In this document: positions 3,821-30,919 of the stretch, one piece after another
Numbering within the stretch: the stretch's first letter is position 1
How the letters are laid out: the number at the start of each line of letters is the position of its first letter
DNA from: a virus
Taxonomy: Duplodnaviria; Heunggongvirae; Uroviricota; Caudoviricetes
IMG/VR virus record: IMGVR_UViG_3300031760_000004
Span: 92,294 to 156,293 of that record
Length of the DNA stretch: 64,000 nucleotides
Reading direction: 5' to 3' (one strand)
Notes under the pieces: generated by a model
What the model was told of the DNA's origin: nothing
The model's input: only the letters and a program-made list of their open reading frames with translations
Databases searched by the model: none
Position numbers and translations under genes: made by a program

Positions 3821-3821
3821 C

Positions 3822-14556: not shown

Positions 14557-15127
14557 CGGCAAGGGACAGGTATACGGCCTGGAACTTAACGACAGCGAAA
14601 GCGGAGGCTTTCGACATAACTCGCTCGGATATTCCACGAGTTGCGCAGTGATACGACCGGTTCCAAGGGAAACCCTGGAATACTGCCGCAACGACATGGA
14701 CAGTGTCCGTGAGTGGTGGAAAATGGCCGTGGCCGACGACCACACGGAGCTCGGGCTCGAGGACTACTTCAAGCAGATGCTCGATACCGATTCCGACAGC
14801 TTCTGGTACGACGAGGACTGGCCGGCCAAGGACGAGTCGTTCTGCTACGGTCTGCTGGAGGACCACGATAACCCGACGCTCAAGGCGGGCGGGTTCAAAG
14901 GCGAGGATCAGAATGGCGGCGACTTCCGGAAGTACATCGAAAAACTCATCGCCGACAGCGACGAGATCGACATTGACGGTGAGGACATAGCCACATGGGA
15001 GGCGTCCGGATTGTGGGCGCCGAGCGAACCGTTCGTGATCGAGCTTGCGCCGCGGGAGATCCTTGACGAGTACTACTCGCACCTTGTCAAGACGGACGCG
15101 AAGTTCCAGGAGAACTGGAAACGATGA
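14528..15127 (+). CDS. hypothetical acidic protein
   Basis: AAGGAG upstream. Confidence 0.7.
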   Translation: MYRYVTLGIDGKGQVYGLELNDSESGGFRHNSLGYSTSCAVIRPVPRETLEYCRNDMDSVREWWKMAVADDHTELGLEDYFKQMLDTDSDSFWYDEDWPAKDESFCYGLLEDHDNPTLKAGGFKGEDQNGGDFRKYIEKLIADSDEIDIDGEDIATWEASGLWAPSEPFVIELAPREILDEYYSHLVKTDAKFQENWKR

Positions 15128-15393
15128 ACAGCACGAGAATCTATCTGGAGGACGGTATGTACATGGCGATTGTCGTGTTTCTGGGACTGGTCGTCCTGGC
15201 ATTCGCCGTCAAGGGCGGGACCAGGCGGATAGTCAAGGCCATCGACAACCTCGCGGAAGTCGAGAGGAACCGCCCAGTCATACACATGGGAGCGCCGGAA
15301 CCGCTTATCGAGTTCGGCAAACCCGACATCATGCTCTGCAACGTGAACACGGAGGAAGACAATGGCAGCAACAGCGACAACGAACAAAATTGA
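15124..15393 (+). CDS. small membrane protein
   Basis: one TM helix. Confidence 0.6.
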   Translation: MNSTRIYLEDGMYMAIVVFLGLVVLAFAVKGGTRRIVKAIDNLAEVERNRPVIHMGAPEPLIEFGKPDIMLCNVNTEEDNGSNSDNEQN

Positions 15394-15658
15394 GTACCCG
15401 GTCCCGAGCGGGCCGCGGCTGGTGACGTCGGCGAACCTGACGCCGTGGGCCGTCATGTGCATCGTGGGCGCGCTACGGCGCGACTCAGAGGCGCGAAGCA
15501 AGCAGGCCGCGGAGGAGGGCGATAAGACCGGCTCACTGAAGCAGATAGCCGACGACGAGCTGGCCCTGTCCAGGCTCATCTCGGCGCTTGACTCCGCCGA
15601 CGGGATCGCGGTCTACCCGATCAAGATCAACGTCTACGCCGAGGAGGCCCCGAAGTGA
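15362..15658 (+). CDS. hypothetical protein
   Basis: GGAGG RBS. Confidence 0.65.
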   Translation: MAATATTNKIEYPVPSGPRLVTSANLTPWAVMCIVGALRRDSEARSKQAAEEGDKTGSLKQIADDELALSRLISALDSADGIAVYPIKINVYAEEAPK

Positions 15659-16017
15659 GGAAGCCCTGCCTCCAGTGCTTCAGGAAGCACATGGGTAACG
15701 CGGCCGTCCTGATGGAGGAGGTCCTAGACGGGTATCCGTACCGGTTCCTCGTCTGCGGGCACCTCGACCAGGCGGCGCAGGAGATACGCAGGTGGTCCCC
15801 GCGGCTGGCGACGGTCGTGCGGGCCCACCGCATCAGGCTCCAGAACGCGGACTTCGACTACGACATCCCGTTCGAGGAGATCGACCGGTTCATCTCGGAT
15901 GTCGAGCTGATTCCCGACCACGACACGAATTTCCCGGAAATCCCGGAGTCGTGCTACGAGGGTCTGGAGAGGAACGCCACCGGCGGCTGGGAGCTGTACG
16001 AAGGCGACCAGCGATGA
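15655..16017 (+). CDS. hypothetical protein (CxxC N-terminus)
   Basis: GTGA coupling, GGAGG RBS. Confidence 0.65.
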   Translation: MRKPCLQCFRKHMGNAAVLMEEVLDGYPYRFLVCGHLDQAAQEIRRWSPRLATVVRAHRIRLQNADFDYDIPFEEIDRFISDVELIPDHDTNFPEIPESCYEGLERNATGGWELYEGDQR

Positions 16018-16121
16018 GCGAGCAGATCATACGCTACGAACGCGATGGAGGATGCGGTTGCGAGACGATTATCATAATCGGACTGCTTCTGTACATTATC
16101 CACCTGCTTGGAGGATTATGA
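16014..16121 (+). CDS. 35-aa membrane peptide
   Basis: ATGA coupling; MSEQIIRYERDGGCGCETIIIIGLLLYIIHLLGGL. Confidence 0.5.
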   Translation: MSEQIIRYERDGGCGCETIIIIGLLLYIIHLLGGL

Positions 16122-16122
16122 C

Positions 16123-16221
16123 ATGAACGAGAGCGCCATAATTATATGCACGACGATGGTGTGCTTCACAGCCATAATCGTAACTCTCATAATCGTGCTC
16201 GGAGGTGGCGATAGGGGATGA
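16123..16221 (+). CDS. 32-aa membrane peptide
   Basis: GGAGG RBS; MNESAIIICTTMVCFTAIIVTLIIVLGGGDRG. Confidence 0.5.
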   Translation: MNESAIIICTTMVCFTAIIVTLIIVLGGGDRG

Positions 16222-16622
16222 GCAAGGAATACCGCGTCAACGTGGTGTACTCGATGGTGCACACCATGTATGTAGAGGCTGACTCGCCGTCAGAGGCGAG
16301 GGCTCTGGCGATGGAGAAGTTCTGCGACGAGCCGGACTTCTCCGACGACGAGATCGACGAGGTCATGCGCGCCAGCGTCGTTCCAGGCCCGGGTGACAAG
16401 ACATATCCGGTACGGTATCGTGGCTGCTACAGGCACGGAGGAGCACCTGACCCGGACGATCCTAAGGTTGGACGAGTAGAGTATTGGACCATGGACCACA
16501 TACTCGACGAGATCAACGGCGGACGTTGCGAAGGCTGGACCCCGTACACCAAGGAGGACTGGCAGGAGGGACTCGACGAGTGGACGGAGTGGGAGCCTGT
16601 AAGGGAGGATGACAAATGCTGA
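16218..16622 (+). CDS. hypothetical protein (DpnD/PcfM-like N-terminus)
   Basis: YRVNVVYSMVHTMYVEADSPSEARALA pattern. Confidence 0.55.
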   Translation: MSKEYRVNVVYSMVHTMYVEADSPSEARALAMEKFCDEPDFSDDEIDEVMRASVVPGPGDKTYPVRYRGCYRHGGAPDPDDPKVGRVEYWTMDHILDEINGGRCEGWTPYTKEDWQEGLDEWTEWEPVREDDKC

Positions 16623-16822
16623 CACTGGGCGAGGAGAGCCTGCTTCACGGCGCCATGAAAGAGGCGCATGAGCTGGAGAACTTGGACAAGAACGACAGCC
16701 ATGCATCTGTAATAAGGCGGCTTGTCGATCTAGTCAGAGACAAGGACCACGAGATCCGGGAGCTGGAGCTCAAGATTTCGTCAATGAAGCGAAGGGCCAG
16801 TAGGGGGCTGCCGTTGTTCTGA
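16616..16822 (+). CDS. hypothetical coiled-coil protein
   Basis: GGAGG RBS. Confidence 0.6.
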   Translation: MLTLGEESLLHGAMKEAHELENLDKNDSHASVIRRLVDLVRDKDHEIRELELKISSMKRRASRGLPLF

Positions 16823-16948
16823 TGATTGACAAGATACTGCATGTGTTTGCCGGGCTGTGCCTTGTAATCGCGCTTTGGGCGGCATACGAGATCATACCGG
16901 CGTGCATCGCCCTGCTGTTCGACTGGTTGTTTTGGAGAAGTAAAAAGC

Positions 16949-17302
16949 ATGAACGCACTGAAGCTGAAAAAACTGTACGCGAAGACAATTAGTGATTCGC
17001 CGTACTTCTGCGACCAGATGCTGCCTACGCAGCCACGTGACGAGATCCGTCTCGCCACAGTTAAGATGCGGAACGCCGCACGGCACCGCGTCGCGAATGG
17101 AATTGAAGCCGGGAATCTCATGTGGAACGAGATTCTCAACGAGAACGTGTGGGAGGCCACAACCCACATGGCGTTCGACGAGAACACCGAGGCGATCGAC
17201 AGCCTGTACGACGCCGTGGTGACGATCATGCGCACAATCGACGTGCTTGAAGGTAAGCAAGCACTTGGCAAGCCGGACAAGGAGAAGACCGATGAAAAGT
17301 AA
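16949..17302 (+). CDS. hypothetical protein
   Basis: GGAG upstream. Confidence 0.65.
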   Translation: MNALKLKKLYAKTISDSPYFCDQMLPTQPRDEIRLATVKMRNAARHRVANGIEAGNLMWNEILNENVWEATTHMAFDENTEAIDSLYDAVVTIMRTIDVLEGKQALGKPDKEKTDEK

Positions 17303-17696
17303 GGAAAAGAACTACAACGAAGTCAGCTGCGACGACCAGAGCCGGTGGGGCATGCTGAACGACTCTGACCTGGCGTGCAACAACTACTACGGCGCCAGGT
17401 GCATAGCCGAGCGCTCGTACGACAGGAAGTCCGTCCGCCTCGACTTCATCCCCAACCGGATCTCGTTCAGGGGGTGCCGGAAGGACGTGGACAAAATCGT
17501 AAAGTTCGTCAACCGGCACGTCAGGCGGATCGAGAAGTTCGTGCACGAGCACGGTCTCGGCTCCAGCAAGGAGTACGTGGTCGAGTCTCCGGAGGGAATC
17601 AAGCTCACAGCCACCCCTCACGGGTCTGACGGCTACGTGTATCTCAAGGCGGTCTGGAACGGCTACGACAAGAGGAAGGGGGCCGTTAATGGCTGA
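17292..17696 (+). CDS. hypothetical protein
   Basis: AAGGAG RBS. Confidence 0.65.
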   Translation: MKSKEKNYNEVSCDDQSRWGMLNDSDLACNNYYGARCIAERSYDRKSVRLDFIPNRISFRGCRKDVDKIVKFVNRHVRRIEKFVHEHGLGSSKEYVVESPEGIKLTATPHGSDGYVYLKAVWNGYDKRKGAVNG

Positions 17697-18180
17697 CGGA
17701 AACGACGAGATGATGAAGATGCTGTCGAAGCTCTTCGACATCAAGGCGAAGTACGAGAATCTGAGGGGGGTGCTGTCGAAGCACGTGGAGAACCCGGACG
17801 ACCTACAGGAGGTCGAGGAGGTGCTCGGCAAGGCCGGGGCTGACGACCTGCTGGACCAGCTGATGGAGACTACCGGGCACGACCAGTACGTGGACTTCGA
17901 GGAGTTCGTGTGCGACGCCGCAAAGGAGAGGGACCTGCACAAGGGCATGGTTCCGCTGGCGTGGATCGAGACAGAGGACCACGGTGACATCGTTACGACC
18001 CCGGACTTCTGGGACTGCGGCTGCACAGTCGACTATGTCCATCCGAAGACAGAGGACGTCTGCCCGAAGTGCGGGTTCAAACGCGACGAGCAGCCCGACT
18101 CCCGTCTGGACGAGGCCCTATGGTACTACAGGAACAAGCTCGGCCTGTCCAGTAACGACAAGGAAAAGGACAACGCATGA
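17689..18180 (+). CDS. hypothetical protein with C-terminal Zn-ribbon
   Basis: WDCGC...CPKCG. Confidence 0.7.
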   Translation: MADGNDEMMKMLSKLFDIKAKYENLRGVLSKHVENPDDLQEVEEVLGKAGADDLLDQLMETTGHDQYVDFEEFVCDAAKERDLHKGMVPLAWIETEDHGDIVTTPDFWDCGCTVDYVHPKTEDVCPKCGFKRDEQPDSRLDEALWYYRNKLGLSSNDKEKDNA

Positions 18181-18413
18181 ACGCTCTTTCAGAGACTCTG
18201 GACTACACCGGGCAATACCGGGACGCACGAAAGCTCGCCGTGTCAAGCGGGCTGATACCGGCCGAAAAGGCCGCCGTGATGACCGACGACGAGGTGTGCA
18301 GCAAGCTGCTTGGAAAATACTCCATACTTGCCAAGGACGGGGAAACAGTGTTCCTTGTCGACAAGGCTGACGAGGCAAAAGTCAGGTCGATGCTGAAGTG
18401 TCTCAGCAGATAG
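18177..18413 (+). CDS. hypothetical protein
   Basis: ATGA coupling. Confidence 0.65.
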   Translation: MNALSETLDYTGQYRDARKLAVSSGLIPAEKAAVMTDDEVCSKLLGKYSILAKDGETVFLVDKADEAKVRSMLKCLSR

Positions 18414-18421
18414 GAGGCTGT

Positions 18422-18655
18422 ATGGCCGAAAAGGTCATGCTCTCGATAAGAGACCCCGAGCAAGCCCTGCAGGCAATGCTGATGGAAAGGTTCAGAAGGA
18501 CCGAGTTCCTCTGGAAGACCGCCGACGGAAGTGTCGTAAACGTCAGGGACATGGATGACGTCCACCTGAACAACGCGATAGGCTATCTAAGGCGAGCAGT
18601 ATTCAACAAGGAGGTCTGCCTTGAGAATGAAGCGGAGGCACTAAACAATGACTAA
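18422..18655 (+). CDS. hypothetical protein
   Basis: AGGAGG RBS. Confidence 0.65.
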   Translation: MAEKVMLSIRDPEQALQAMLMERFRRTEFLWKTADGSVVNVRDMDDVHLNNAIGYLRRAVFNKEVCLENEAEALNND

Positions 18656-18944
18656 GAGGGAAAGGTGCAGACTTTGTTTTGATGGTGAAATTGAACCTAA
18701 GGACTGCATCTACTACGGCGAGCCGAACGGATGTAATTCGCCAATATACGGCGAGTACCCGAAGTTCAACGAGGCCGACATAACGCGTGTTCTTTCCAAG
18801 GTGCACGACTACCTGGGAGAACTCATTCGTGACGGTCTGGTCGATGACACCGTCAGGGCAAGCGAACTTGCAGACGAGGTATGGGATGCGTACCACTACA
18901 CTGACACCGAGGCGGGCGAGGAAGATCCTCAGGCTGGCGTCTGA
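18648..18944 (+). CDS. hypothetical protein
   Basis: GGAGG RBS. Confidence 0.6.
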   Translation: MTKRERCRLCFDGEIEPKDCIYYGEPNGCNSPIYGEYPKFNEADITRVLSKVHDYLGELIRDGLVDDTVRASELADEVWDAYHYTDTEAGEEDPQAGV

Positions 18945-19377
18945 TCTTGTCCGCATCACGACGCCGCTCGCCGACGACGCCGGGCGGAGGCTCATGGGAA
19001 ACGACAACGGCCTCAGATGGTGGCGTCCAGGAGACCCAGACGACAAGGAGGCGCACCAAGACTGGATGCGCCTCGTCCTGTATTCGGACACATGCGATGA
19101 AATCGCAAAGGAGGTTTCAAGGATGAATATACCCGTCAAGGATGACGTGACGATCCCATGGATGAGCACAAGGGAAATACCGGCAATAAAGTTCGTGCTG
19201 CAGGCGTGGCGCAAGGCGCGTAAAGACTCCGGGTTCAGGCTTGCCGTCAAGAAGAACATGCCTGCGGAAGACGTTCTGATGGACACCCTGGCTTCACATG
19301 CGGACTTTGTTTCACACTGTCTCGAAGAGGTAGCCATAGCCAACGAGACGCTGAAAGGGAGGGGAAAGGTAAAATGA
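18886..19377 (+). CDS. hypothetical protein
   Basis: ORF in gene run; start uncertain. Confidence 0.55.
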   Translation: MRTTTLTPRRARKILRLASDLVRITTPLADDAGRRLMGNDNGLRWWRPGDPDDKEAHQDWMRLVLYSDTCDEIAKEVSRMNIPVKDDVTIPWMSTREIPAIKFVLQAWRKARKDSGFRLAVKKNMPAEDVLMDTLASHADFVSHCLEEVAIANETLKGRGKVK

Positions 19378-19583
19378 CATACAGGCTTGCAAAGGTCAAC
19401 GGCAGGGTGATTCAGGTGCTTCGCGGGTCGTCCGTCGTATACTACGATGGGGACGACAGGGTTGAAGCCCCTGTCTCACTTGTCGAGGCCGACTCGTTTG
19501 ACGAGGCGGTTCGTAAGTTTTCGGAGGAAAACGATGGACAAGGATCCCGGACTGGAGATGCGTCGTCTGTCCAACGACCGTGA
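19374..19583 (+). CDS. hypothetical protein
   Basis: ATGA coupling. Confidence 0.55.
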   Translation: MTYRLAKVNGRVIQVLRGSSVVYYDGDDRVEAPVSLVEADSFDEAVRKFSEENDGQGSRTGDASSVQRP

Positions 19584-19887
19584 CTACTGGAAACGGAAGG
19601 CCGCGGCGCTCGAGCGTAAGTACGGTCGGCTAGAGGGCCACGCGTTCATAGCGCTTGTGGCCGTCAAGCACGGCAAGAAGTGGGACTCGGAAGTGCTGTG
19701 GTTCGACGACGAGCGCGAAAGCGTCCAGGCGTCGCGCCACATGCGCAGGCAGATGATGACGCTGACCGAGATGCTCAAGGACGACGGCTACGTGCCGGAG
19801 GAGGATCAGGATGGAGGCAAAAGCGGAGAACGGATACCCGACAAAGTGCCTGGCAGGCAAGATCCCGAAAAACAAGTTCGAGTATGA
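19534..19887 (+). CDS. hypothetical protein
   Basis: GGAGG RBS. Confidence 0.6.
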   Translation: MDKDPGLEMRRLSNDRDYWKRKAAALERKYGRLEGHAFIALVAVKHGKKWDSEVLWFDDERESVQASRHMRRQMMTLTEMLKDDGYVPEEDQDGGKSGERIPDKVPGRQDPEKQVRV

Positions 19888-20236
19888 AGGCGGCGTGGTA
19901 CTGTTCCACCCCGGCAGGCGAGAGTTCATAAGAATAGCGTTCGGCAACGGCGACAATCTTACCCAGGAGGACCTTGAGACAAAGGACTCGAACGGCAACG
20001 GCGTCGACGACTACATGTACCTGACGACGTACAGTGTGCCGCAGGACATGGGATGGGACGGGCTGTGCCTGCAGGAAAAGGACGGTGGCCTGATGCTGTT
20101 TTCGCACGAGACCTACAGGTCGGGCGACATACGCGAGATGCTCGCCCCGTCGCTTGACTTCATGGGGTGGCCGGACAGCGTCGGCGAATATGTGTTCGTG
20201 TCAGGGGAGGATCTATGCGAAGAGCAGGCAAGATAG
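19811..20236 (+). CDS. hypothetical protein
   Basis: GGAGG upstream. Confidence 0.65.
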   Translation: MEAKAENGYPTKCLAGKIPKNKFEYEGGVVLFHPGRREFIRIAFGNGDNLTQEDLETKDSNGNGVDDYMYLTTYSVPQDMGWDGLCLQEKDGGLMLFSHETYRSGDIREMLAPSLDFMGWPDSVGEYVFVSGEDLCEEQAR

Positions 20237-20439
20237 TCTCAGGCGGAGGCTTCGCCAGGATAGACGGAAAGACGTACTCCTACGTGTATCGTAAGGGAAA
20301 GCCGGTAGTAACGGGAATAACCGGAGACGAGTTCAAACACGGTGTGGAATCCGTATTTGGAAAAGGCTGGGTTGATGACGACAAGCCCGTGAGTAACGAC
20401 GAAAAAGACAAGAGGGAGGACCAGTGCGAACAATCATAG
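20215..20439 (+). CDS. hypothetical protein
   Basis: GGAGG RBS. Confidence 0.5.
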   Translation: MRRAGKIVSGGGFARIDGKTYSYVYRKGKPVVTGITGDEFKHGVESVFGKGWVDDDKPVSNDEKDKREDQCEQS

Positions 20440-20858
20440 GAACTCTTCTTAGCGTGATGATCGGAGGTTTAGCCATGGCCGATGTGACTGTTTCCAAGGA
20501 TTTCCTGGCAAGGATAGCCTACGTGGAAAGCAAAGGAAACCCGTCGGCCTTCAACCGCGGGTCTGGCGCGTACGGCATGTACCAGATACGAATGCCGTAC
20601 CTGTCGGACGCCAACGAGGCGATGGGCACTGACTACACCCTTGACGACATGTTCGACGCTGAAAAGGCCGAGCAGGTAGTCAGGGCGTATCTCATGAAAT
20701 GGGGGTCTAAGTTCGCCGAGCGTCACGGCAGGCTTCCAACTGACGAGGAGCTGGCCCGTATACACAATGGCGGTCCACGCGGCGCCGAGAGGCAGAGCAC
20801 GCTGAAATACGCGGCGCTGTTCAGGGACGCGCCAGAAGGGGGCGGAAGATGCTTCTGA
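20424..20858 (+). CDS. lysozyme-fold muramidase (i-type/destabilase-like or lytic transglycosylase) with signal peptide
   Basis: IAYVESKG (catalytic Glu), GAYGMYQI, ARIHNGGPRG; hydrophobic N-terminus ending A-M-A. Confidence 0.8.
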   Translation: MRTIIGTLLSVMIGGLAMADVTVSKDFLARIAYVESKGNPSAFNRGSGAYGMYQIRMPYLSDANEAMGTDYTLDDMFDAEKAEQVVRAYLMKWGSKFAERHGRLPTDEELARIHNGGPRGAERQSTLKYAALFRDAPEGGGRCF

Positions 20859-21190
20859 ACGAGGAGACGTTCCTGCTGAGGACGACCGACGGGGAGCTGG
20901 TCCTGGCCAACCTTGACGTCAAAGAGCAGTGGGATTCGATAAACCTATACTGGCCGAACAGCGACGGGTTCGGAATTCCGGCCGTGTGGGTCGGAGACGA
21001 CGGCGGATACGAGAGGGAGGTTGAACAGGCGTACGAGTACTCCGGAACCGGGTTCTCGGACGTCTTCAATGTCTTCAAGCCGTACGACATGGAGACCTTC
21101 ATACGAAGGGTCATACAGAAAAGGGACAAGTACTACCCTGGGTACGAGGAGTCAACCCAGGAAATCCTAATGAGAATGGAGCCGACATGA
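20849..21190 (+). CDS. hypothetical protein
   Basis: overlapping ORF. Confidence 0.65.
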   Translation: MLLNEETFLLRTTDGELVLANLDVKEQWDSINLYWPNSDGFGIPAVWVGDDGGYEREVEQAYEYSGTGFSDVFNVFKPYDMETFIRRVIQKRDKYYPGYEESTQEILMRMEPT

Positions 21191-21501
21191 ACATTAAGTT
21201 CGCAGACGAGGAGACGCTCAACCGTTTCCAGCAGTGTCGGGAGATGTCACGCGAGTGCGAGAACTCCCTCGACAGAGTGATCACAAACCTGATGTGCTGG
21301 CACCCGCACACCGACACCGCGGTTATCTACCGAGACTTCCACGAGCAGTCGTTCTTCTTCCAGGAGATCCACGCCGACGGGAAGAAGGGAATGTGCGGCG
21401 GCATCATCTTCCATGGCAAGCACGACAACGGAGGAGACGGCGGTCCGTCAACCTTCAGCGTGTGCCTGAGCCCGACGGACGGGTACGCCATCCACACCTA
21501 G
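21187..21501 (+). CDS. hypothetical protein
   Basis: ATGA coupling; common phage-type SVCLSPTDGYAIHT C-terminus. Confidence 0.7.
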   Translation: MNIKFADEETLNRFQQCREMSRECENSLDRVITNLMCWHPHTDTAVIYRDFHEQSFFFQEIHADGKKGMCGGIIFHGKHDNGGDGGPSTFSVCLSPTDGYAIHT

Positions 21502-21509
21502 GGGGCCTC

Positions 21510-21863
21510 ATGGACATTTCGGAGGCCACGGTGAGCCAGCTCCTGTCGGAGCTCAGAGGCCGTAAGGAAGTGATAGCAGTCAAATGCTGGGTCGTAAAGG
21601 ACCTGCACTACTGGATTGACAGGGAGATCGAAGTCGAAGACACCGGCGACGACGAGGACAAGGAGCGGGCTGCGTTCATGGACGCGCACCGAGACGAAAT
21701 CGTTGAAGAGGCAGTTGGCAACCTGTTCGATCTTGAGGACTGCATCCAGGAGGACTGGCGGATGATCGACGCCGTCATGCACGACGCCGTCATGCACGCT
21801 AGGGTGAAAGATTATGACCGCAAGCACGCGGCAGACAACAACAAGGAGAAGAACAATGACTAA
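21510..21863 (+). CDS. hypothetical acidic protein
   Basis: ORF in gene run. Confidence 0.65.
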   Translation: MDISEATVSQLLSELRGRKEVIAVKCWVVKDLHYWIDREIEVEDTGDDEDKERAAFMDAHRDEIVEEAVGNLFDLEDCIQEDWRMIDAVMHDAVMHARVKDYDRKHAADNNKEKNND

Positions 21864-22509
21864 GGCAACCTACGAACTGACGTTCACCGAGATGGCTCTC
21901 GGAAGCAAACCCTCCAACGAGGGCGTTTTCACAGACTACATCGCCGCGAACAAAAAGGACGGAGTGGATCCTGAGGAGGTGGCCGCGGCCAAGGAGGCCG
22001 AGGAGCGCGTTAAGGAGTCCATCACCGTCTTCCACCGCATGGAGGATGGAAAGACCCCGATGGTGTGGAACTACCAGATCAAGGGTCTCGCCAAGGAATC
22101 GTGCGGAGCGCTTCGCCGCGTCGACGGAACCCTTTCGGCCAAAATCGCGTCGTACAAGACGATCATCGACACCCTCGTGTTCGTCGGTCCTCGCAAGATT
22201 CCGCTTGTCCTTCCCGAGGGAGGGGAAGTCGGCGTGTTCGAAAGGCCGCTGCGCGCAGAGACCATGCAGGGCCCGCGTGTGGCCCTAGCGAAGTCCGAGA
22301 CCGTCCCGGCCGGAACGAAGATGGCCTTCGAGGTCACGTTCATGACCCCGAAGGTTGGAAAGTCAGACAAGGTCGTCGACCTCAAGGAGGCGTTCGAGGA
22401 GTGGCTTGACTATGGAGAGCTCCATGGATTCGGCCAGTTCAGAAACGGCTCTTACGGGACGTTCACCTGGCGCGAGATCAAGCCCGAGGACACTGAAAAG
22501 GCCGAATAG
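21856..22509 (+). CDS. stand-alone RAMP/Cas7-like RNA-binding protein (217 aa)
   Basis: RAMP hallmarks: N-terminal strand YELTFTEMALGS, YQIKGLAKES helix, ERPLRA..ALAKSETVPAGTKMAFEV, C-terminal Gly-rich loop GELHGFGQFRNGSYGTF; AAGGAG RBS. Confidence 0.8.
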   Translation: MTKATYELTFTEMALGSKPSNEGVFTDYIAANKKDGVDPEEVAAAKEAEERVKESITVFHRMEDGKTPMVWNYQIKGLAKESCGALRRVDGTLSAKIASYKTIIDTLVFVGPRKIPLVLPEGGEVGVFERPLRAETMQGPRVALAKSETVPAGTKMAFEVTFMTPKVGKSDKVVDLKEAFEEWLDYGELHGFGQFRNGSYGTFTWREIKPEDTEKAE

Positions 22510-22519
22510 TTTGGCCAAC

Positions 22520-22543
22520 GGGGGCCGGTCCATTCCGGCCCCC
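22520..22543 (+). other. perfect 9-bp GC hairpin (leader or processing stem)
   Basis: GGGGGCCGG-TCCATT-CCGGCCCCC, no U-tract, 10 nt after the RAMP stop. Confidence 0.75.
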
Positions 22544-22553
22544 TGTCCGCTAT

Positions 22554-23285
22554 GGCTACGTGCGGCACAGAGCGGATATGCTTTGCTTAGGCAGGGCAAA
22601 GCGGAGCGGTACGCCGCGAAGGCCTAGCGCAGAATCGCTCAGTGTAGGCAAAGCAACGAGGAGCGAAGCGACGGCAGGGCAACGAAATGCGAAGCAAGTC
22701 CAGGCAGCGCTTCGGCTCGGAATTGACGTGCGTCGATATGCCAGGGAAAAGCGTGGATTGGCAATGGCAACGACATGCGAGGATACGCAACGCACCGGAA
22801 ACGCAGCGAGCTGCGATGGCATAGCACAGATCAACAGTGCAAGGGCATGGCTGGGCAAAGACACGTGACGCAACGCGTCGGCACTGCATGGAACGGAAGA
22901 GCAATGAGGGGCAAAGGCATGGAGTAGCAACGAAATGCTACGGCAACGCAGGGACTGGCGCCTAAAGGCAAAGCAATGGCAAAGCAATGATCAGCGCAGC
23001 GAAGCGCGGCGCCGGCCTAGCTATGATGGGCACGGCAAAGCGCAGAAGTGCAATGGCATGGTTCTGCGAAGCAACGATTCGCGACGGCTGAGCATAGACG
23101 AGAAGCGTTCGGCGGCGCATTGGCAAAGCGAAGCTACGACTGGCACCGCAAAGGCACAGACTGGCGCAGATTCGCGACGCAAAGGCGCAGACTGGCGCAG
23201 ATTCGCGACGCAAAGGCATGGACACGCAAAGAGATGCGATGTGCTACAGCGGCAAAGCACAGAATATTGTCGCAAGGCAGGGGAA
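22554..23285 (+). repeat. 5-nt-periodic array [G(G[C/A/T]NNN)4-8]x23; putative guide-RNA array
   Basis: manual parse: 142 pentamers, 136 with G at the same phase; a +1 phase shift at GG(C/A) 22 times; complete block lengths 21-41 nt, all 5n+1. Confidence 0.85.
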
Positions 23286-23307
23286 CTGAAACTGGGAGGA
23301 TAAGAAC

Positions 23308-24030
23308 ATGGACATCAAGGTGTTCACCATGGTGGAGGCCGTGCATCTTTCAGGCACGGCAAGCCAAATGGACAGCGACGACCTGTCGGCATGGAGCCAG
23401 ACATACTCAAGCATGCCGGAGGCCATGCTGTCAGTGAAAAACGCGATACAGAGTGCCGTGTACGAGTTCTACAACGGCTCCGACATGACGTGCGACGACC
23501 TTGACAAGATTGTCGACGTCGTGTTCGGCGACAGGCGTGAAGACGGCGACTGGGTGTGGGATCCGGCAGACAGGTCATATCTGTGGCGGATAGTTGAGGA
23601 CGTGCTGTACGTCCCGTGCGACTGCGAAGACGAGCCTGACACGACCGTGGAGCAGATGGGACACCGGAAGGACGACAGCGAGCACGTTGATGGGCTTGAC
23701 GGATGCAAATACCCGAAGCTCAGCGTCTGGTTCAAAAACGCCAATACGCCAGGAAGCGAAATCGGCATGGAGTTTTCAACTCCGGAGGAGGCCCTGGCAT
23801 GGGCGGAGACATACGACGGTGGTAACTCCGAGTTTGGAAGGACCTGGTTGCCCGTAGTCATCAATGTCGTAACCCCCGGTTACACAAGGGAAATACATGA
23901 CTGCGCCGGCAGCTGGGAGGACTTCATCGGAGAGCTGGCGTACGCGTGTGGAGACGACGGGTCGTTTGCAGATCCGGACGAACTTGAACGCAGGAACGAA
24001 AAGTACCGTGAATGGTACAGGGAGGTTTAG
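23308..24030 (+). CDS. hypothetical acidic protein
   Basis: GGAGG RBS. Confidence 0.75.
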   Translation: MDIKVFTMVEAVHLSGTASQMDSDDLSAWSQTYSSMPEAMLSVKNAIQSAVYEFYNGSDMTCDDLDKIVDVVFGDRREDGDWVWDPADRSYLWRIVEDVLYVPCDCEDEPDTTVEQMGHRKDDSEHVDGLDGCKYPKLSVWFKNANTPGSEIGMEFSTPEEALAWAETYDGGNSEFGRTWLPVVINVVTPGYTREIHDCAGSWEDFIGELAYACGDDGSFADPDELERRNEKYREWYREV

Positions 24031-24031
24031 G

Positions 24032-24406
24032 ATGACAAGAAGCAAGTTTAGCAGGTTGAACGCGGAGTACAATTCGCGGTTCAAGGACGAGGTACTGGCC
24101 AAGACCAAGAAGGAGATCATGGGCAACTCGATGGAGATCATCATGGCCGAGGAGATGGATGCCGTGGCTGAGATGCTAGAGATGGGCGCCCGAGGAAATT
24201 CGTACGACAGGGTCTGTGCGCACAGGCTGTGTGGTCTTGTGAAAAAGCTCAAGCCCGAGCAGTACACGTACGATGTGTTCCTGTCGTGCATCCCGTGGCT
24301 GTGCGAGCCTATGGACGACGGTAACTACGGTCTGTTCGACAACGGAACGAAGTACGACGAGTTCGCCGCGGCCATCGAGAACGCAATGGGGTTAGGTGAG
24401 GACTAG
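24032..24406 (+). CDS. hypothetical protein
   Basis: GGAGG RBS. Confidence 0.7.
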   Translation: MTRSKFSRLNAEYNSRFKDEVLAKTKKEIMGNSMEIIMAEEMDAVAEMLEMGARGNSYDRVCAHRLCGLVKKLKPEQYTYDVFLSCIPWLCEPMDDGNYGLFDNGTKYDEFAAAIENAMGLGED

Positions 24407-24426
24407 AAAGACAAGGAGAGCAATCG

Positions 24427-25455
24427 ATGAAAAAACTGAAGGTGATGAGCACGGACGACGAGTCGTTCCAGAACTGCAGGGAATGGGTCGAGCTCCACAG
24501 GGACACCAACGGGTACAACCCGTTCGAGGACTGTGAGCAGGTGTTCGAACTCTGGTCCAACATCCCAAGGGAGATTGGATCGACCAGGAACGCCGAGGAC
24601 CCGCTCGAGGAGGTTCTTGACGAAGACGGATACGGAACCGGTCGGTATCAGCCCAAGGAAGGCTACATCATCGTTCCTGTGAGTGTCATGATCCACAGCG
24701 GGATTTACTTCAGCGTCGGCACCGTGAGGTGCATGTTCGGGGACACTCCCGGCCCTGGCGGCCGAGGCTGGGACACAACCCCCAACGCCTGCTTCCTGTA
24801 CACGTACAAGGAGCTGTGGGAGCGCATGATGGGGAAGGGAACCTGGATGAAGGTCCGCAACAACCCCAAGTCCGACACTGACTGGTCAAGGCGTCCAGGC
24901 ACTCGTGAGGAGTTCGAGAAGGAAGTCGAGTGCAAGGCCGGCTATCTGGTCGACCAGCTCAACCTGGCCGAAGAGGGGTCGGTCTACGGATACACAACGC
25001 ACAAGCGTGTGCACTACACGCGCATTGATGACGACGGGACCAGAACAGACTGCTGGGAGGAGCAGGACGGAGACGACTCCTGCTGGGGGTTCCTAACAGA
25101 CAAAGTCGATGACATCGACTTCCCGCGTGAACTTCCAGTGTACGCCGACCCGAACGGTGACTGCCAGTGGTTCATCGGCGACGAGTACGAGGTTCCGGAG
25201 TTCCTGGTCACCGAGGTTGAGAAGGGTACCGGGAAGCGGGCGTTCCTGAAGAGCTACGAGGTGGGACCGGACGGAAAGTGCCAGCGGGCCGAATGGGTCT
25301 ATGACAGGAACGACGCCATGAAGCTCGTCTCCTGGTGGCAGGTCCAGCGGGTGGCCCAGATCGTAATCCCTAAGGACGAGTACAACTGCCACCGTAACTG
25401 CGTCGAAATCGACAAGGTGGACGAGCTGGACGGAGCCGCCGAGGCTAAGGCTTAG
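24427..25455 (+). CDS. hypothetical protein
   Basis: AAGGAG RBS; motifs GSVYGY and DSCWGF. Confidence 0.75.
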   Translation: MKKLKVMSTDDESFQNCREWVELHRDTNGYNPFEDCEQVFELWSNIPREIGSTRNAEDPLEEVLDEDGYGTGRYQPKEGYIIVPVSVMIHSGIYFSVGTVRCMFGDTPGPGGRGWDTTPNACFLYTYKELWERMMGKGTWMKVRNNPKSDTDWSRRPGTREEFEKEVECKAGYLVDQLNLAEEGSVYGYTTHKRVHYTRIDDDGTRTDCWEEQDGDDSCWGFLTDKVDDIDFPRELPVYADPNGDCQWFIGDEYEVPEFLVTEVEKGTGKRAFLKSYEVGPDGKCQRAEWVYDRNDAMKLVSWWQVQRVAQIVIPKDEYNCHRNCVEIDKVDELDGAAEAKA

Positions 25456-25680
25456 CCGGACTTGAAATTGCTTCTGTGGTGTTCCGTACGGAACTTCAGG
25501 AAGCAGACTGGGGACGCAATGCCGATTCCTGCCACGGGAAGGCCCCTCTTGGCGCGCCGCGCAGTCCGGGGGTATGTTCGTATACCCCGGCGCGTGAAAC
25601 GCGCTCAGAGGGCCTCCTGAGGCGAAACTGTCCGGAAGGGCTTGCAAGGGGCTGGAATCCGGAACTGGCGGCCGAACTGC

Positions 25681-25960
25681 CGGAACGGAAGTGTGGCTGG
25701 AATGCAGAACGATGGAATGGAATGTTCTGAGAGACAGTGGTTTTTTCACCCCTAAAGAGTGATATAATATATCACCCTTTATGGGGTGTGGAATTTCCAC
25801 AGTATCGCGGGCAAAAATTCTGCGGACACGGCCCCGCCGTTCTCTGGGGTTTCGTTTCACTCCACTCCACTTCACTCCTTCACCACTGTTACTTCGTAAC
25901 AGTTAAGTAGTATATAAATATACTACTGTTCAGTCGTTACGTTCCGTTCCGTTACACTCA
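25681..25960. other. AT-rich multi-palindrome intergenic region; candidate replication origin or control region
   Basis: four inverted repeats (25747-25788, 25788-25800, 25885-25903, 25906-25927) flanked by GGAAY and TCCAC/GTTCC short repeats. Confidence 0.45.
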
Positions 25961-26066
25961 ACCCCAATCGAAACGGCGGCATGCGCGCACGCATGTGCGC
26001 TGGCGCGTATAATAAAGGTTATAAAGGGTTACCATCGGCAACTTCACTTCTGGAGGATTGAAAACC

Positions 26067-26813
26067 ATGAAAAAGACCAAGAAGACCTTGAAGGGTTCCG
26101 GGGGTTCAACCTCCGAACCCGTTGAACCAAGTAAGCAGAAGTCAGGCGCGAGATGGTGCGTGACCGATGGGTGGGGCAACCTTGAAAGGGTTGTGAAACC
26201 CTGGGCTTCCGGAAGGGATCTGGAATCCGCCTACGACGCCCTCGGGAGGTACGCGAAGCGTACGTACCCGAGAACCTTCATGAAGGTGTGGACTCAGACG
26301 TTCCTTGGCAGGGGTGTCGTATGCGACTTCGGCGACCACCGCTTCTTCGGGTTCGTCGAGCTGCAGGACGGTTCAGCCATCCTTCCGCCAGCCTACGGCT
26401 GCAATGCCGGGCATGGCGTTCCGGACGCTACTGGCATTACGGACGTCCCCGATGTCCAGAAGGCGCCGGCTGGCGCATCCGTGCACGATTGCCTCGCCAG
26501 CTCATGGGGCCTGGCCCTTACTCGCCTGTTCCAGGACTACCTCAGGCGTGCCGAGTCGGCAGGCTCCGGATGGTTCACGTCGCACGCCCTCGAGTACTGC
26601 TGCGTCAGCGAATGGTGGGAGATGTTCTGCCAGGACGATCCCGACATTTCGCCGGTGTGGGAGGACGACATGTCCCCGGAGGACGTGTACAACGGTGTCG
26701 TCGGATGGGCGAAATGCTGCACGGACGCCCCGGAGATACTCCTGCAGAACAGCCCCGACGCCAGGTGGGACGCCTTCAGGGCCGGCCTGCTGTGGGGCGC
26801 GAAAAGGCCTTAA
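26067..26813 (+). CDS. hypothetical protein
   Basis: GGAGG RBS; TATAAT at 26008-26013 upstream. Confidence 0.65.
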   Translation: MKKTKKTLKGSGGSTSEPVEPSKQKSGARWCVTDGWGNLERVVKPWASGRDLESAYDALGRYAKRTYPRTFMKVWTQTFLGRGVVCDFGDHRFFGFVELQDGSAILPPAYGCNAGHGVPDATGITDVPDVQKAPAGASVHDCLASSWGLALTRLFQDYLRRAESAGSGWFTSHALEYCCVSEWWEMFCQDDPDISPVWEDDMSPEDVYNGVVGWAKCCTDAPEILLQNSPDARWDAFRAGLLWGAKRP

Positions 26814-26839
26814 CAGGGGCCGGAAAAAGGTTATAACAA
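26807..26839 (+). promoter_or_regulatory. repeated promoter-like motif GYCTTAA-N16-GTTATAACAA, copy 1
   Basis: GCCTTAA at 26807, GTTATAACAA at 26830. Confidence 0.55.
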
Positions 26840-26929
26840 CATACCGGGGGAGCTTAGTTTCCACTGGAGGCCACGCGACGACGCGGGCATTCCATGGAGG
26901 CCCCTCCGATAAGATGGAAGGTTTTCACA

Positions 26930-27724
26930 ATGAACAAGGTTTCACTGGCGGCCGTGTTCCGCCATGATCCCGAGAGCGACGGCAGCACGATACCGGCCTC
27001 CCTGGAGCGCCAGGACCCCACCTGCGAGTGGGAGACGGTCGTCGACCCGATAGTCGGGTTCATGGCCGTGTCCTACATGGGTAGGGTTTCGTGGTGCTTC
27101 GTCAAATACGAGGCGCCCGACATCAGGTACCTGAAGAAGGGCGACAAGAGCCCCAGGATCAGGCTGGCCTCTATGTCCACGGCAAGGGTCGGCCACGTGA
27201 CGTGCCCGCAGTGCGGGAACGCGTGCGTGTACCCGGTCTGGTCTAAGACCGAGAACATGCCGTGCCCCGCGTGCGGCCACAAGGGCGTGGAGGCGGACCT
27301 CATCCGCGAGGGCGGATCGGAATTCATGTCCCTGATGGGCGACCTGAAGGGGCAGCTCGAGGAGGCAGTGCTCGGGGTCGACCAGGACACGGCCGACGAG
27401 TTCCGGTTCCCGGATCTCATGCTTCTTGGCCATGTCGACCCGTCCCCGTCCGTCGATCCGGCGCTTCAGGGTCTGGCCACGTCACGCGGCCTAGGCCTGA
27501 AGCTGGCGCGTGAAAGCTCCTCCCAGGAGCTGTTCGGGACCGGGATGCAGGGGCCGGACACCGGCCTCCTCATCAAGCCGGGCGTCGTGTCCGGGGTCCT
27601 GGACGCCGACGACGCCAGAGACGGGTGGCGCCGCACCGAGGGCGTGGTAACGTCATTTGTCAAGCTCGGGTGGCTCCCGAAGGAGCCGGCCAGGCCGGCG
27701 AGGTTCGGCGGTGCCAGGCTCTGA
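26930..27724 (+). CDS. hypothetical protein with Zn-ribbon
   Basis: CPQC...CPAC. Confidence 0.7.
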   Translation: MNKVSLAAVFRHDPESDGSTIPASLERQDPTCEWETVVDPIVGFMAVSYMGRVSWCFVKYEAPDIRYLKKGDKSPRIRLASMSTARVGHVTCPQCGNACVYPVWSKTENMPCPACGHKGVEADLIREGGSEFMSLMGDLKGQLEEAVLGVDQDTADEFRFPDLMLLGHVDPSPSVDPALQGLATSRGLGLKLARESSSQELFGTGMQGPDTGLLIKPGVVSGVLDADDARDGWRRTEGVVTSFVKLGWLPKEPARPARFGGARL

Positions 27725-27968
27725 ATGGGAACGGTTCGACCATGCACTATTCAGGCGTCTCAGGATTGAGCGCAAGCTCAGTCAGAGGGACCTGGCACGC
27801 GCCGTCGGGGTCACCACTATGACGGTCAAGAACTGGGACCACGGCAGATATTCGCCGAACGCCTCCGTGGTTCCGGCCCTGTGCGCGGCAATGGGGCTTT
27901 CCCCGTCCGAGCGCGCAAGGCTTGGCCTGAGGGGGTTTTCCGGGCCTTCCGGGCCCGACGATCTTTGA
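27711..27968 (+). CDS. XRE-family HTH transcriptional regulator
   Basis: LRIERKLSQRDLARAVGVTTMTVKNWDHGRYSP. Confidence 0.85.
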   Translation: MPGSEWERFDHALFRRLRIERKLSQRDLARAVGVTTMTVKNWDHGRYSPNASVVPALCAAMGLSPSERARLGLRGFSGPSGPDDL

Positions 27969-27969
27969 C

Positions 27970-27998
27970 TTGAAATCGCCTCTGCGTTCGCGTATACT
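27970..27998 (+). promoter_or_regulatory. sigma70-type promoter
   Basis: TTGAAA-N17-TATACT; ATG at 28006 suggests a leaderless mRNA. Confidence 0.7.
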
Positions 27999-28005
27999 AT
28001 GTCAC

Positions 28006-28302
28006 ATGGAAAACACCAGTGACAACGCGGGCATGGGGGCGTTTGAGCCGAAGGTATCGCAGCTCATCCACGAGACCAGGGGCCTTCTAGGGATCCTGAA
28101 GTCCGTGAAGGGGCTTGAAAACGACGGGGCCGAGAACCAGCTGTACCGGATAACGCTGAAGCGCTTCCGGGACAACTGCCTCCGGCTCGCGTCCTACATG
28201 GAGGCCTGCTCGATGCTCGCCGGCGACGCCGAGCGCGACAGGATCCTCAAGGCCAACGGCTGCGGCTGGGACGACGGAAAACACCGCGTCCTGCTGGGCT
28301 GA
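28006..28302 (+). CDS. hypothetical protein
   Basis: ATG just after the promoter. Confidence 0.65.
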   Translation: MENTSDNAGMGAFEPKVSQLIHETRGLLGILKSVKGLENDGAENQLYRITLKRFRDNCLRLASYMEACSMLAGDAERDRILKANGCGWDDGKHRVLLG

Positions 28303-28370
28303 ATTCCAACGCGGCCGCGCAGAACCAGCTATGCGCGGCCAAGATCAAGCTGGGAAAAGGAGCCATCATC

Positions 28371-28769
28371 ATGGCATTCAAGTTCAAGGTCAACCAGGGC
28401 GTCCACGTCCGCCAGGACATCTTCGACAAGCTGTGCGAGGCGCGCAACATGCGTCTGCACGGGGAGATACAGTTCATCGACTGCCACGCGGACCGTTTCG
28501 AGGTCCGGAAGAGCGACGGGTCCGTCGAGACGTTCAAGGCCTACGGTGACGAGCCGTCGTCGGTGAGGCTTTGCAACCTCCTCAACGCGGACATCCAGGC
28601 CGAGCCTGCGCGTCGCGAGGCCTACCTCGCGGCAAAGGCCTCCGACGTCAAGTCGGAGAAGTCGAAACCGGACACAGGGAAGCCCTCGGTCCGCCCGTTC
28701 ATACCGCGTGGCGAGAGGTTCGCACGCGAGGACGCCGAGAACGCGAAGTTCAAGGGGGCCAGGATATGA
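28371..28769 (+). CDS. hypothetical protein
   Basis: AAGGAG RBS. Confidence 0.7.
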   Translation: MAFKFKVNQGVHVRQDIFDKLCEARNMRLHGEIQFIDCHADRFEVRKSDGSVETFKAYGDEPSSVRLCNLLNADIQAEPARREAYLAAKASDVKSEKSKPDTGKPSVRPFIPRGERFAREDAENAKFKGARI

Positions 28770-28921
28770 GGGCCTCCCGCAACATCAGCGTCCGCGCCGT
28801 CCGCGAGGCGCAGAAGGCCGAGTACCGCGAACGTCGCCAGGCAGCCTCGGGCTTCGGTCCGGATACGCTGTTCGGCTGGAGACAGCCGAGCAAGCCTGAG
28901 CCGGCCAAGACCGGCAAGTGA
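28766..28921 (+). CDS. small basic protein
   Basis: ATGA coupling; ends at a terminator. Confidence 0.5.
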   Translation: MRASRNISVRAVREAQKAEYRERRQAASGFGPDTLFGWRQPSKPEPAKTGK

Positions 28922-28957
28922 GAGAGCGGCCCCTTCGGGGGCCGTTTCTCTTTTTTT
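28921..28957 (+). terminator. intrinsic terminator
   Basis: GCGGCCCC-TTCG-GGGGCCGT stem followed by a T7 tract. Confidence 0.9.
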
Positions 28958-28964
28958 ACCTATC

Positions 28965-28997
28965 GTCTTAAAACAGCCTCTACAGAAGTTATAACAA
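28965..28997 (+). promoter_or_regulatory. repeated promoter-like motif, copy 2
   Basis: GTCTTAA at 28965, ACAGCCT, AGAAGTTATAACAA. Confidence 0.65.
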
Positions 28998-29062
28998 AAT
29001 AGTAGGAAACTGTTAATTTCCAACGCACAACGCGTGGAGCGGTTTCTTTAAGGAGATTTACA

Positions 29063-30004
29063 ATGAAAAAGTTCTACCGTGACCGTGCTTCTCTTGTTCC
29101 TGGAGACTTAATGCCTGGTCCAGAATGGCACGATACCGACAACATTGACGTTGAGAATTGCCTCAGGACATATGCGGGACAGTATGTTGCTGCCGTCCAT
29201 ACGGCGGCTGGCAATGCCCACTATGACACCTGTTGCTTCCTCGCTGGGTTTGGCACCCGCGATGCGGCGGAAAGGGCCGTGGCGGAGGTCATATCGGCCA
29301 GACTCAAGACCTTCGGGAAAAACATCCTCCCAGGAGAGGTCCTTGAGCTTGGTCGAAGGTCTTGGAGTCGGAGGCCTACTGAATGGGGTGGCCCTCCTCG
29401 CCCGTTTCAGCGGATCAGTTTGTTTCTTCACTTCGGACGGGTGTACAGCCCATTGAAGCCTGAGGAGCAGGCCAAGGACCGGAACGCCTACGAGGCCTAC
29501 ATGGCCATGAAGGCCGAGGAAGAGGCCATCGCCAAGGCCAGGGCGGAGGAGGCAAAGGCGAAGATGCTCTCCGAGCATCAAAGTCAGCCACGGGCCGTGC
29601 ATGACCGGAAGCCTCCGGAAATCGAGGACCGTGAGACGAGGGAGGACCGGGAGTTGATATCGCGGCTTGTCTTCAGGGCCCAGGATAGAAGGTTCACAGG
29701 CTTGCGGTACAAGGTAGACTGGGCTCCGATAAACCGGCAGTTGGCCAGATGTGGCGTCTGGTCTGAGATTCACTCTGCGCTTGACGCGCTTGTTACCACG
29801 GACAAGTACTGGTTCATCGCCAGATGCCGTGTCTACGGGCAGAGAGCGGCTGAGTTGAACAACTTGCGGAACAAGATCCGAAAGGCCGCGTTCCGAGAGC
29901 TTGAGATCGCCTCGTTTTACAGGAGGCTACCGGAGATCACGCGCAAGTGGGCGGAGGCATACGTGGCGAGACGTCGCGAACGCCTCGACTCTATTGCAGC
30001 GTGA
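29063..30004 (+). CDS. hypothetical protein
   Basis: AAGGAG RBS; own promoter and terminator. Confidence 0.75.
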   Translation: MKKFYRDRASLVPGDLMPGPEWHDTDNIDVENCLRTYAGQYVAAVHTAAGNAHYDTCCFLAGFGTRDAAERAVAEVISARLKTFGKNILPGEVLELGRRSWSRRPTEWGGPPRPFQRISLFLHFGRVYSPLKPEEQAKDRNAYEAYMAMKAEEEAIAKARAEEAKAKMLSEHQSQPRAVHDRKPPEIEDRETREDRELISRLVFRAQDRRFTGLRYKVDWAPINRQLARCGVWSEIHSALDALVTTDKYWFIARCRVYGQRAAELNNLRNKIRKAAFRELEIASFYRRLPEITRKWAEAYVARRRERLDSIAA

Positions 30005-30008
30005 CCAC

Positions 30009-30043
30009 GCACGCGGCGGCCTTCGGGCCGCTGCGCGTTTTTT
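30009..30043 (+). terminator. intrinsic terminator
   Basis: CGCGGCGGCC-TTCG-GGCCGCTGCG followed by T6. Confidence 0.9.
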
Positions 30044-30052
30044 ATCTATCAG

Positions 30053-30085
30053 GTCTTAATTACAGCCTGTAAGAAGTTATAACAA
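30053..30085 (+). promoter_or_regulatory. repeated promoter-like motif, copy 3
   Basis: GTCTTAA at 30053, ACAGCCT, AGAAGTTATAACAA. Confidence 0.65.
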
Positions 30086-30185
30086 TTTAACGGAAGGACG
30101 TTATTACATGACGCATAATGCGTGTGGCGTCCGACCATTAGCACCGGCATTCTGGACGCCGGAATAAAAATAGTTCGGAAAACTT

Positions 30186-30875
30186 ATGACAGACACACAG
30201 GTACAGCAACTCATGACGACGCTCTCGAAAATAGAGCGCAAGTACGTAAACGCGGTCTTCTCGTTCATAAAACTGGTTGAACGCGTTGCCATGGCGCCGT
30301 ACCCGGTCGCCATGCTGAAGACTCTCGAATGGCTTGCGGAAAACAACCAAGTTGAGATAAAGCTTAACTCAGACAACAAGATAAAGCCCGAGGACGAAGA
30401 GTATTCAAGCGGAGACCACCGCGTATACATCCACGCCTCAGACGGCATGGTGTGCGTTTCCGACAAGATGCCTTCCAAATGGACTGACAGTATTGGCAGG
30501 ACTCATGTCGAGAACCACATCGTGCTTGGACTGTCTACAAGTCTTGAGGGAATGCTGTCTGAGGGTCTCCACAACTTTGGGACACGCCCATCAGACATCA
30601 CGGAGTACAAGCGTGTATGCTCGAAACAACTGCTTATGGTTGAATACCTCAAGCACTACGAGGATGCGCTGACATACGTCATCGACTATGCGACCGTTCG
30701 GTCTGAAACTGAAGACGAGGCTTTGTCCACGTTTGACAAGATGTTGTCAGGCGAGACTGAGAACAGTTCGCTCAAGATAATGAGTAGAGAGTCACCAAAG
30801 TATCGTCCATCCATGCCAGATAGGCCAGTTTTGTCAGAAATGCATTGCGAAGACAATGACGATGACAATGACTAG
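30186..30875 (+). CDS. hypothetical protein
   Basis: ORF between promoter motif and terminator. Confidence 0.7.
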   Translation: MTDTQVQQLMTTLSKIERKYVNAVFSFIKLVERVAMAPYPVAMLKTLEWLAENNQVEIKLNSDNKIKPEDEEYSSGDHRVYIHASDGMVCVSDKMPSKWTDSIGRTHVENHIVLGLSTSLEGMLSEGLHNFGTRPSDITEYKRVCSKQLLMVEYLKHYEDALTYVIDYATVRSETEDEALSTFDKMLSGETENSSLKIMSRESPKYRPSMPDRPVLSEMHCEDNDDDND

Positions 30876-30883
30876 CCACTCAC

Positions 30884-30919
30884 AAGCCCGTCCCCGCAAG
30901 GGGCTCCGGGCTTTTTTTT
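30884..30919 (+). terminator. intrinsic terminator
   Basis: AAGCCCG-TCCCC-GCAA-GGGG-CTC-CGGGCTT followed by a T tract. Confidence 0.85.

Follow-up and report, generated by a model that had tools for sequence, protein, structure and literature searches.

On the plus strand of the window (the whole 64-kb stretch of DNA analysed here), a small open reading frame, a gene for a RAMP/Cas7-like protein, a hairpin and a long array of five-nucleotide units follow one another, ahead of genes for proteins of 240 and 342 amino acids (Table 1). Further upstream lie an SLT/destabilase-like lytic transglycosylase (20424–20858) and a DUF4120 protein (21187–21501), whose position is kept in rumen relatives of the phage. 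Searches of the neighbouring proteins against Pfam, PHROG and PADLOC returned nothing but these SLT and DUF4120 assignments, with no cas genes in the locus, and TRF run on 15000–31000 detected no CRISPR-like repeats.

Table 1 Features of the candidate VIPR locus, in window coordinates. L002 and L005 are related phages.
Feature	Position	Strand	Remarks
Small ORF, ~117 aa	21510..21863	+	3' end overlaps the vipr start; no Pfam match
vipr, stand-alone RAMP/Cas7-like protein, 217 aa	21856..22509	+	Directly upstream of the array
GC-rich hairpin, 9-bp stem, 6-nt loop, no U tract	22520..22543	+	Separates the vipr stop codon from block 1
Candidate vrRNA array, 23 blocks of G + (G-M-N-N-N)x4-8	22554..23285	+	Fills the entire intergenic gap between two plus-strand genes
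Block 2, 6 units, 18-mer containing AAGGAGGT	22590..22620	+	Conserved in L005 and L002
Block 11, 7 units, 21-mer antisense to Lon protease codons D-V-V-V-F-P-H	22844..22879	+	Exact matches codon-aligned
Block 17, 6 units, 18-mer equal to sense codons M-S-E-N-F-D of large serine recombinases	23055..23085	+	Variable bases identical in L005
Blocks 20 and 21, one 31-nt block duplicated in tandem	23153..23214	+	TRF period 31, 2.3 copies, 95% match
First gene 3' of the array, 240 aa	23308..24030	+	RBS GGGAGG directly after the last block
Conserved gene, 342 aa	24427..25455	+	Downstream of the array in 4/4 close relatives whose fetched locus passes the array

Among the flanking features, the overlap of the small ORF with the start of vipr suggests, from the gene layout, translational coupling of the two; relatives carry unrelated small ORFs in the same vipr-overlapping position, and this ORF and its counterparts are possibly variable accessory (vap-like) genes. 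Another possible accessory gene is that for the 342-aa protein, whose predicted structure (pLDDT 86.8) had no informative fold match in the PDB or AFDB and which matched only uncharacterised proteins, plus, at weak similarity, YubB-like and YezG-like entries. The segment around the hairpin (22507–22556) folds at −27.6 kcal/mol (z −3.2), and a hairpin with other stem sequences occupies the equivalent site in two related phages, L005 and L007. An Rfam search of 21500–24500 found no family for the array and a sub-threshold match to the hairpin only; this hairpin may help to process or stabilise the transcript of the array.

Phage VIPR (Viral Interference Programmable Repeat) systems combine a Vipr protein with vrRNAs composed of pentanucleotide repeats (10.64898/2026.04.26.720920), and the protein encoded directly upstream of the array resembles Vipr in several ways. 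A start at 21814 is possible, but homologues are 200–215 aa long, closer to the 217 aa from 21856. These homologues, 609 in number and about 200 aa in length, are uncharacterised and none carries a Pfam domain; likewise, the protein itself had no match in Pfam, PHROG or PADLOC. Its C-terminus holds a Gly-rich loop with invariant G191, G193, R196 and G201. Structurally, the AF2 (AlphaFold) model (pLDDT 83.8) was aligned by VIA-align to Csm3 with a Z of 12.9, and also to Cmr4 and type VII Cas7 (Z 10–12.9 over the three), while Foldseek gave an E of 5e-7 to type VII Cas7/Csm3 and a profile search of PDB sequences matched the G-loop region of Csm4/Cas7. The best entry for Vipr in the AFDB (2.3 million clusters) was A0A1F4YLN4 (E 1e-17, 32% identity); this entry together with A0A2D6XG06, A0A0F9A1L0, X1U2U4 and A0A661D0E2 all fell within the model's top six AFDB clusters, and it is from these same five that the VIPR family was defined (bioRxiv 10.64898/2026.04.26.720920, Methods). 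Judged by its predicted structure and the entries that this structure retrieves, the gene is a Vipr protein. A tblastn search of 50,697 phage records found just four uncultured gut phages, which places the Vipr described here in a distant clade.

The 732-nt array is built of 141 five-nucleotide units in 23 blocks. Within the units, position 1 is G in 96% of cases and position 2 is C (69%), A (27%) or T (4%), whereas positions 3–5 are nearly random (1.80–1.97 bits). We parsed the array by dynamic programming with a score that rewarded only a G followed by C or A every five bases, allowed single-base insertions and deletions, and was blind to the coordinates of the initial annotation, which had proposed that every block measures 5n+1 nt and that the phase slips by +1 at a GG. 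This rule was recovered independently: the parse placed insertions at 22554, 22590, 22621, 22647, 22673, 22714, 22745, 22766, 22797, 22818, 22844, 22880, 22916, 22942, 22978, 23014, 23055, 23086, 23122, 23153, 23184, 23215, 23251 and 23282, with 0 deletions within the array, and the extra base was G in 23 of 23 blocks, all phase slips being +1. Cut at the 22 breakpoints first listed, the internal blocks are all 5n+1 nt long (21–41 nt); the junctions themselves are real, although each of those coordinates is one base too low and marks the base before the GG. The count of 21 blocks opening with GGC and two with GGA (22745 and 22797) was also confirmed. Every junction reads N-N-N-G-G-M, and a guide written as GGM...NNN-G has one G in common with its neighbour.

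Block sizes were tightly constrained, at four to eight units with a mean of 6.1 and a standard deviation of 1.08. The shuffle test proposed with the initial annotation bore this out, since in 200,000 random divisions of the 141 units among 23 blocks the sizes never all fell between four and eight, nor was the standard deviation ever that small. The power spectrum of the array showed a single sharp peak at 5.16 nt (31/6) with a power of 26.2, compared with 0.45 at 5.0 and 0.13 at 3.0, and no such peak occurred elsewhere in the 64-kb window. Strand asymmetry was strong (G 253, A 214, C 177, T 88). TRF reported no five-nucleotide repeat in the array and just the 31-nt duplication. A conserved tail between the blocks is absent, as is the 3' tail with pseudoknot that caps type II vrRNAs. 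A sigma-70 promoter scan of the plus strand of the array found none, a null result that says little given that the phage encodes its own RNA polymerase.

Five rumen relatives and two human-gut phages share this grammar, and the array lies directly downstream of vipr here and in seven relatives. Phages whose Vipr is 97, 84, 81 and 72% identical, drawn from bovine rumen metagenomes or public sequencing runs, have arrays of 690–1160 nt in the same place and with the same grammar, as do the two human-gut phages, at 40% Vipr identity. It is the grammar that is conserved among the relatives and not the array sequence. The extra base was G in 26/27, 24/24, 19/20 and 31/31 blocks of relatives, in which a few four-nucleotide units and some long unsplit blocks were also found, so that the 5n+1 rule is strong without being absolute. 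In a phage with a 50% identical Vipr (L003), a short candidate vrRNA of about eight units (5652–5697) stands in place of the long array; the same phage carries a C5 DNA methylase with an intein (1617–4232), two ORFs upstream of its vipr. Blastn of the locus against phage and plasmid collections gave no match, and a search of viral contigs with Vipr for related loci confirmed none.

Against the closest of these relatives, L005 (97% identical Vipr), nine of the 23 blocks were colinear and 81–100% identical, with unrelated blocks in between, and identity dropped from about 93% inside conserved blocks to 35–65% in the flanks bordering non-conserved ones. In a further relative, obtained from a DNA sequencing run (X2), 134 other bases stand in place of 23162–23214 (blocks 20–21), and the match is restored precisely at the block start at 23215. 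These comparisons suggest that the block is the evolving unit. Substitutions in X2, among those listed, showed no clear pattern by repeat position; across retained blocks, the third variable base had changed in 1 of 63 cases and position 2 in 7 of 63, the third being the most conserved. Separately, block 1 (22554–22589), which is less regular than the other blocks, is conserved in four phages (L005 at 1629, L002 at 5707 and L007 at 3074, besides the present one), and its decoded core contains an imperfect inverted repeat, TACGC-4 nt-GCGTA, possibly a leader element or an operator-like target.

With respect to expression, the runs containing the phage were DNA only, and no RNA library with the 2.2-kb locus was listed. 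In one metatranscriptome run, 4% of the words of the array were present; the single contig there (X7) covers 64 nt of an array and stems from an L005-like relative, and since RNA libraries can contain DNA, it does not prove transcription of the array.

To decode the candidate guides, positions 3–5 of each unit were joined without gaps, block by block, and three of the 23 decoded blocks (2, 11 and 17) had a recognisable match. The consensus of block 2 across this phage, L005 and L002 had 37 matches in IMG/VR, all 37 of them to a Shine–Dalgarno box with the spacer that leads into ATG. The variable bases of block 11 are identical in L005 and share their first five triplets with L007; its 21-mer had one exact match in the metagenome collection and one among 185,579 species genomes, both on the lon motif. 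In a sample of 401 Burkholderiales genomes, which shows lon conservation and not host identity, six held this 21-mer at ≤2 mismatches, one of them being the genome with the exact match, and all six lay at the same lon site with every mismatch at a wobble position. The phage's own genome contains no lon. Block 17 had two independent matches in IMG/VR (L064 and L065), both in frame and within the catalytic-domain region of two distinct genes for large serine recombinases, the products of which carry Resolvase, Recombinase and Zn_ribbon_recom domains. Both the lon and the recombinase matches stop at the block edges: the adjoining blocks do not extend the target, and those beside block 11 do not continue lon.

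The holders of these matches should be read with care. The exact lon matches come from a low-GC contig and a Zwartia MAG, which are unrelated taxa, and they show what the string encodes and not that it binds the lon of this phage's host. L065 and relative L001 derive from one rumen metagenome; at 48% GC, against 58% for the phage, L065 may only be a homologue of the true target. The organisms with the exact lon and recombinase matches are probably not the real targets. As for other blocks, exact scans of IMG/VR gave no match for blocks 1, 18 and 22 and three of unclear meaning for block 19, and an 18-mer of block 11 gave two that look random. Within the phage's own 162-kb genome, decoded guides found self-targets no better than shuffled guides did, with skips of 0–3 and three choices of variable position, and the guides of four relatives gave no signal against this genome.

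Among the decoded triplets, in-frame sense stops are depleted here (1 against 6.5 expected, P 0.004) and in the pooled arrays (21 against 33.9, P 0.003), and the opening triplet is ATG in 17 of 110 blocks, compared with 11 of 591 triplets elsewhere, an eight-fold enrichment. The depletion holds for TAA and TAG, the third base after TA avoiding A and G (P 2e-4), and not for TGA, which makes up 10 of 24 TGN triplets; the unit GCTGA, with TGA as its triplet, is common at block starts (23086–23090 here; 5855 and 5890 in L001). Targets outside coding sequence, other reading frames or a structural preference may account for this. Because the searches demanded exact matches, they do not distinguish a reading of all three variable bases from one with a skipped base; the short guides, the unbiased third base and its conservation favour the three-base reading, which would explain why guides of only four to eight units suffice. 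That the code is gap-free, and in this differs from the published one, with a guide bank aimed in part at host housekeeping genes, namely at the best-conserved motif of lon, besides rival mobile elements, and VIPR serving as a tool of host takeover, is a tentative proposal that we consider less likely than not.

Taken together, we consider it probable, at roughly 80%, that the locus is the VIPR system of a 162-kb uncultured rumen phage, composed of vipr and an array of about 23 separate guide vrRNAs. The initial annotation had likewise proposed about 23 separate guides with 12–24 variable bases each, and the neighbouring Vipr, the turnover of blocks and the gene matches confined to exactly one block support it. 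Mechanistically, published work has one protomer binding one repeat, with G1 and G2 in one protomer and Y3 in the next, the target contributing three nucleotides per protomer and vrRNA length setting filament length (10.64898/2026.04.26.720927). Besides the main repeat, NNNGG, YNNNG and NNNNG have been described as alternative vrRNA repeats (10.64898/2026.04.26.720920, Methods), and as the fixed part here is only G-M, like the alternative YNNNG repeat, each unit has three variable bases. The array would be transcribed on the plus strand, probably with vipr, and would supply the ~23 vrRNAs; each Vipr protomer would bind one five-nucleotide repeat, clamp the fixed bases and present the variable ones, so as to read three target bases.

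The junctions would be punctuation under the same model. A guide would open with a full G-G-Y motif, made of the extra G and the first G-C, that may nucleate or cap a filament, and the opening G of the next guide would also close the previous one. Neighbouring guides share or abut at one G with their registers offset by +1, which yields both the 5n+1 spacing and the mean period of 5.16 nt. This frame shift most likely stops a filament from running into the next guide, and 23 separate filaments of four to eight protomers, each its own RNP, would form on and/or be trimmed from one transcript. Their candidate targets would be host-type lon, the serine integrase catalytic domain of competing mobile elements and a translation-start region, where guide binding would silence transcription, as in type II VIPR.

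Alternatively, the array may specify one or a few long vrRNAs in a continuous Vipr filament, with the extra G as a tolerated 6-nt step, for example one per turn of about six protomers. Such an arrangement would fit a mean block of 6.1 units, given six subunits per turn in the binary Vipr filament and reports of natural vrRNAs with as many as 30 repeats, and it would suit the lack of any tail or ribozyme between blocks; yet with blocks of four to eight units the step does not follow a constant turn, single blocks are exchanged between relatives, the matches to lon and recombinase genes end at block edges, and the VIPR preprint reads such arrays as separate overlapping vrRNAs (10.64898/2026.04.26.720920). 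On balance, we regard a continuous filament as unlikely.

Very improbable, in turn, is a role as a double-stranded DNA element, in which a G-C/A every half helical turn would form a binding lattice or curved DNA (a centromere, packaging or nucleoid site). The 5.16-nt peak, which persists coherently across 732 bp, corresponds to half a helical repeat of 10.3 bp, but there is no power at 10.3 bp, the asymmetry between strands is strong, and one additional base in about six units is enough to give a period of 5.16; moreover, the adjacent gene encodes an RNA-binding RAMP of the Vipr family and the variable bases spell gene sequences. A decaying, functionless pentanucleotide microsatellite born of replication slippage would account for tandem five-nucleotide periodicity and one recent 31-nt duplication, but the shuffle test and the comparison of relatives already refute it. 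Block sizes vary far less than chance would allow, 22 of 22 slips are +1 and all G, the units share two bases only, TRF sees no five-nucleotide repeat, and the grammar is conserved across relatives down to 40% Vipr identity and across habitats; the initial annotation, too, had argued against slippage, from the regularity of the single-G phase breaks.

Among known systems, the separate-guide VIPR reading places the locus closest to the staggered arrays, for which the legend of fig. S18 describes vrRNAs overlapping by 1 nt and which in that preprint are without RNA-sequencing confirmation (10.64898/2026.04.26.720920). As far as that legend goes, the two are alike in having a Vipr RAMP gene beside an uninterrupted pentanucleotide array and a single nucleotide shared between vrRNAs, in lacking tails, ribozymes and CRISPR repeats, and in being phage-borne. 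Systems of this kind and their staggered layout have already been published (2026 preprints), and the member described here is new, large and unusually regular; what it adds beyond the staggered-VIPR preprint are the rule G+(GMNNN)n with n = 4–8, its statistics, block turnover and candidate targets.

Type II VIPR, known from Escherichia phage SUSP1 and a Pseudomonas fulva prophage, shares with this locus the Vipr fold, guides (candidate ones here) matching conserved codons of mobile-element recombinases and a lack of self-targets, and one five-nucleotide repeat per protomer would be expected here too. However, SUSP1 repeats are GGY+NN, with three fixed and two variable bases, its vrRNAs have 9–16 units and a ~40-nt 3' tail with a pseudoknot, and it reads its target as NN with one base skipped, whereas in this array G-M alone is fixed, leaving three variable bases, and the 23 guides, of four to eight units and without a tail, stand head to tail. 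The array is not a type II (SUSP1-like) VIPR. The solved folds closest to this Vipr are Csm3, Cmr4 and type VII Cas7. Class 1 CRISPR effectors (Cascade, Csm/Cmr) are similar in that RAMP subunits assemble on a guide with constant nucleotide spacing and base pairing is broken at regular intervals by a thumb, but their backbone has a 6-nt step and a contiguous spacer flanked by repeat-derived handles, and they rely on Cas6/Cas5 processing, cas1-cas2 acquisition and a repeat-spacer array. None of these was found at this locus, which is not CRISPR-Cas.

For the VIPR family, the locus provides a tight punctuation rule for staggered arrays: one G, always +1, and four to eight units per guide. The three candidate targets make the decoding of repeats with two fixed and three variable bases directly testable in reporter assays. 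Functionally, the recombinase match of block 17 echoes the SUSP1 VIPR, which silences a satellite recombinase via a six-unit vrRNA (10.64898/2026.10.15.759431), and the absence of self-targets agrees with reports on other VIPRs. If the lon match is a real target, phage VIPR guides would act on host genes as well as on rival elements, and the gap-free three-base reading, if true, would offer a wider design space for short programmable DNA-binding guides.
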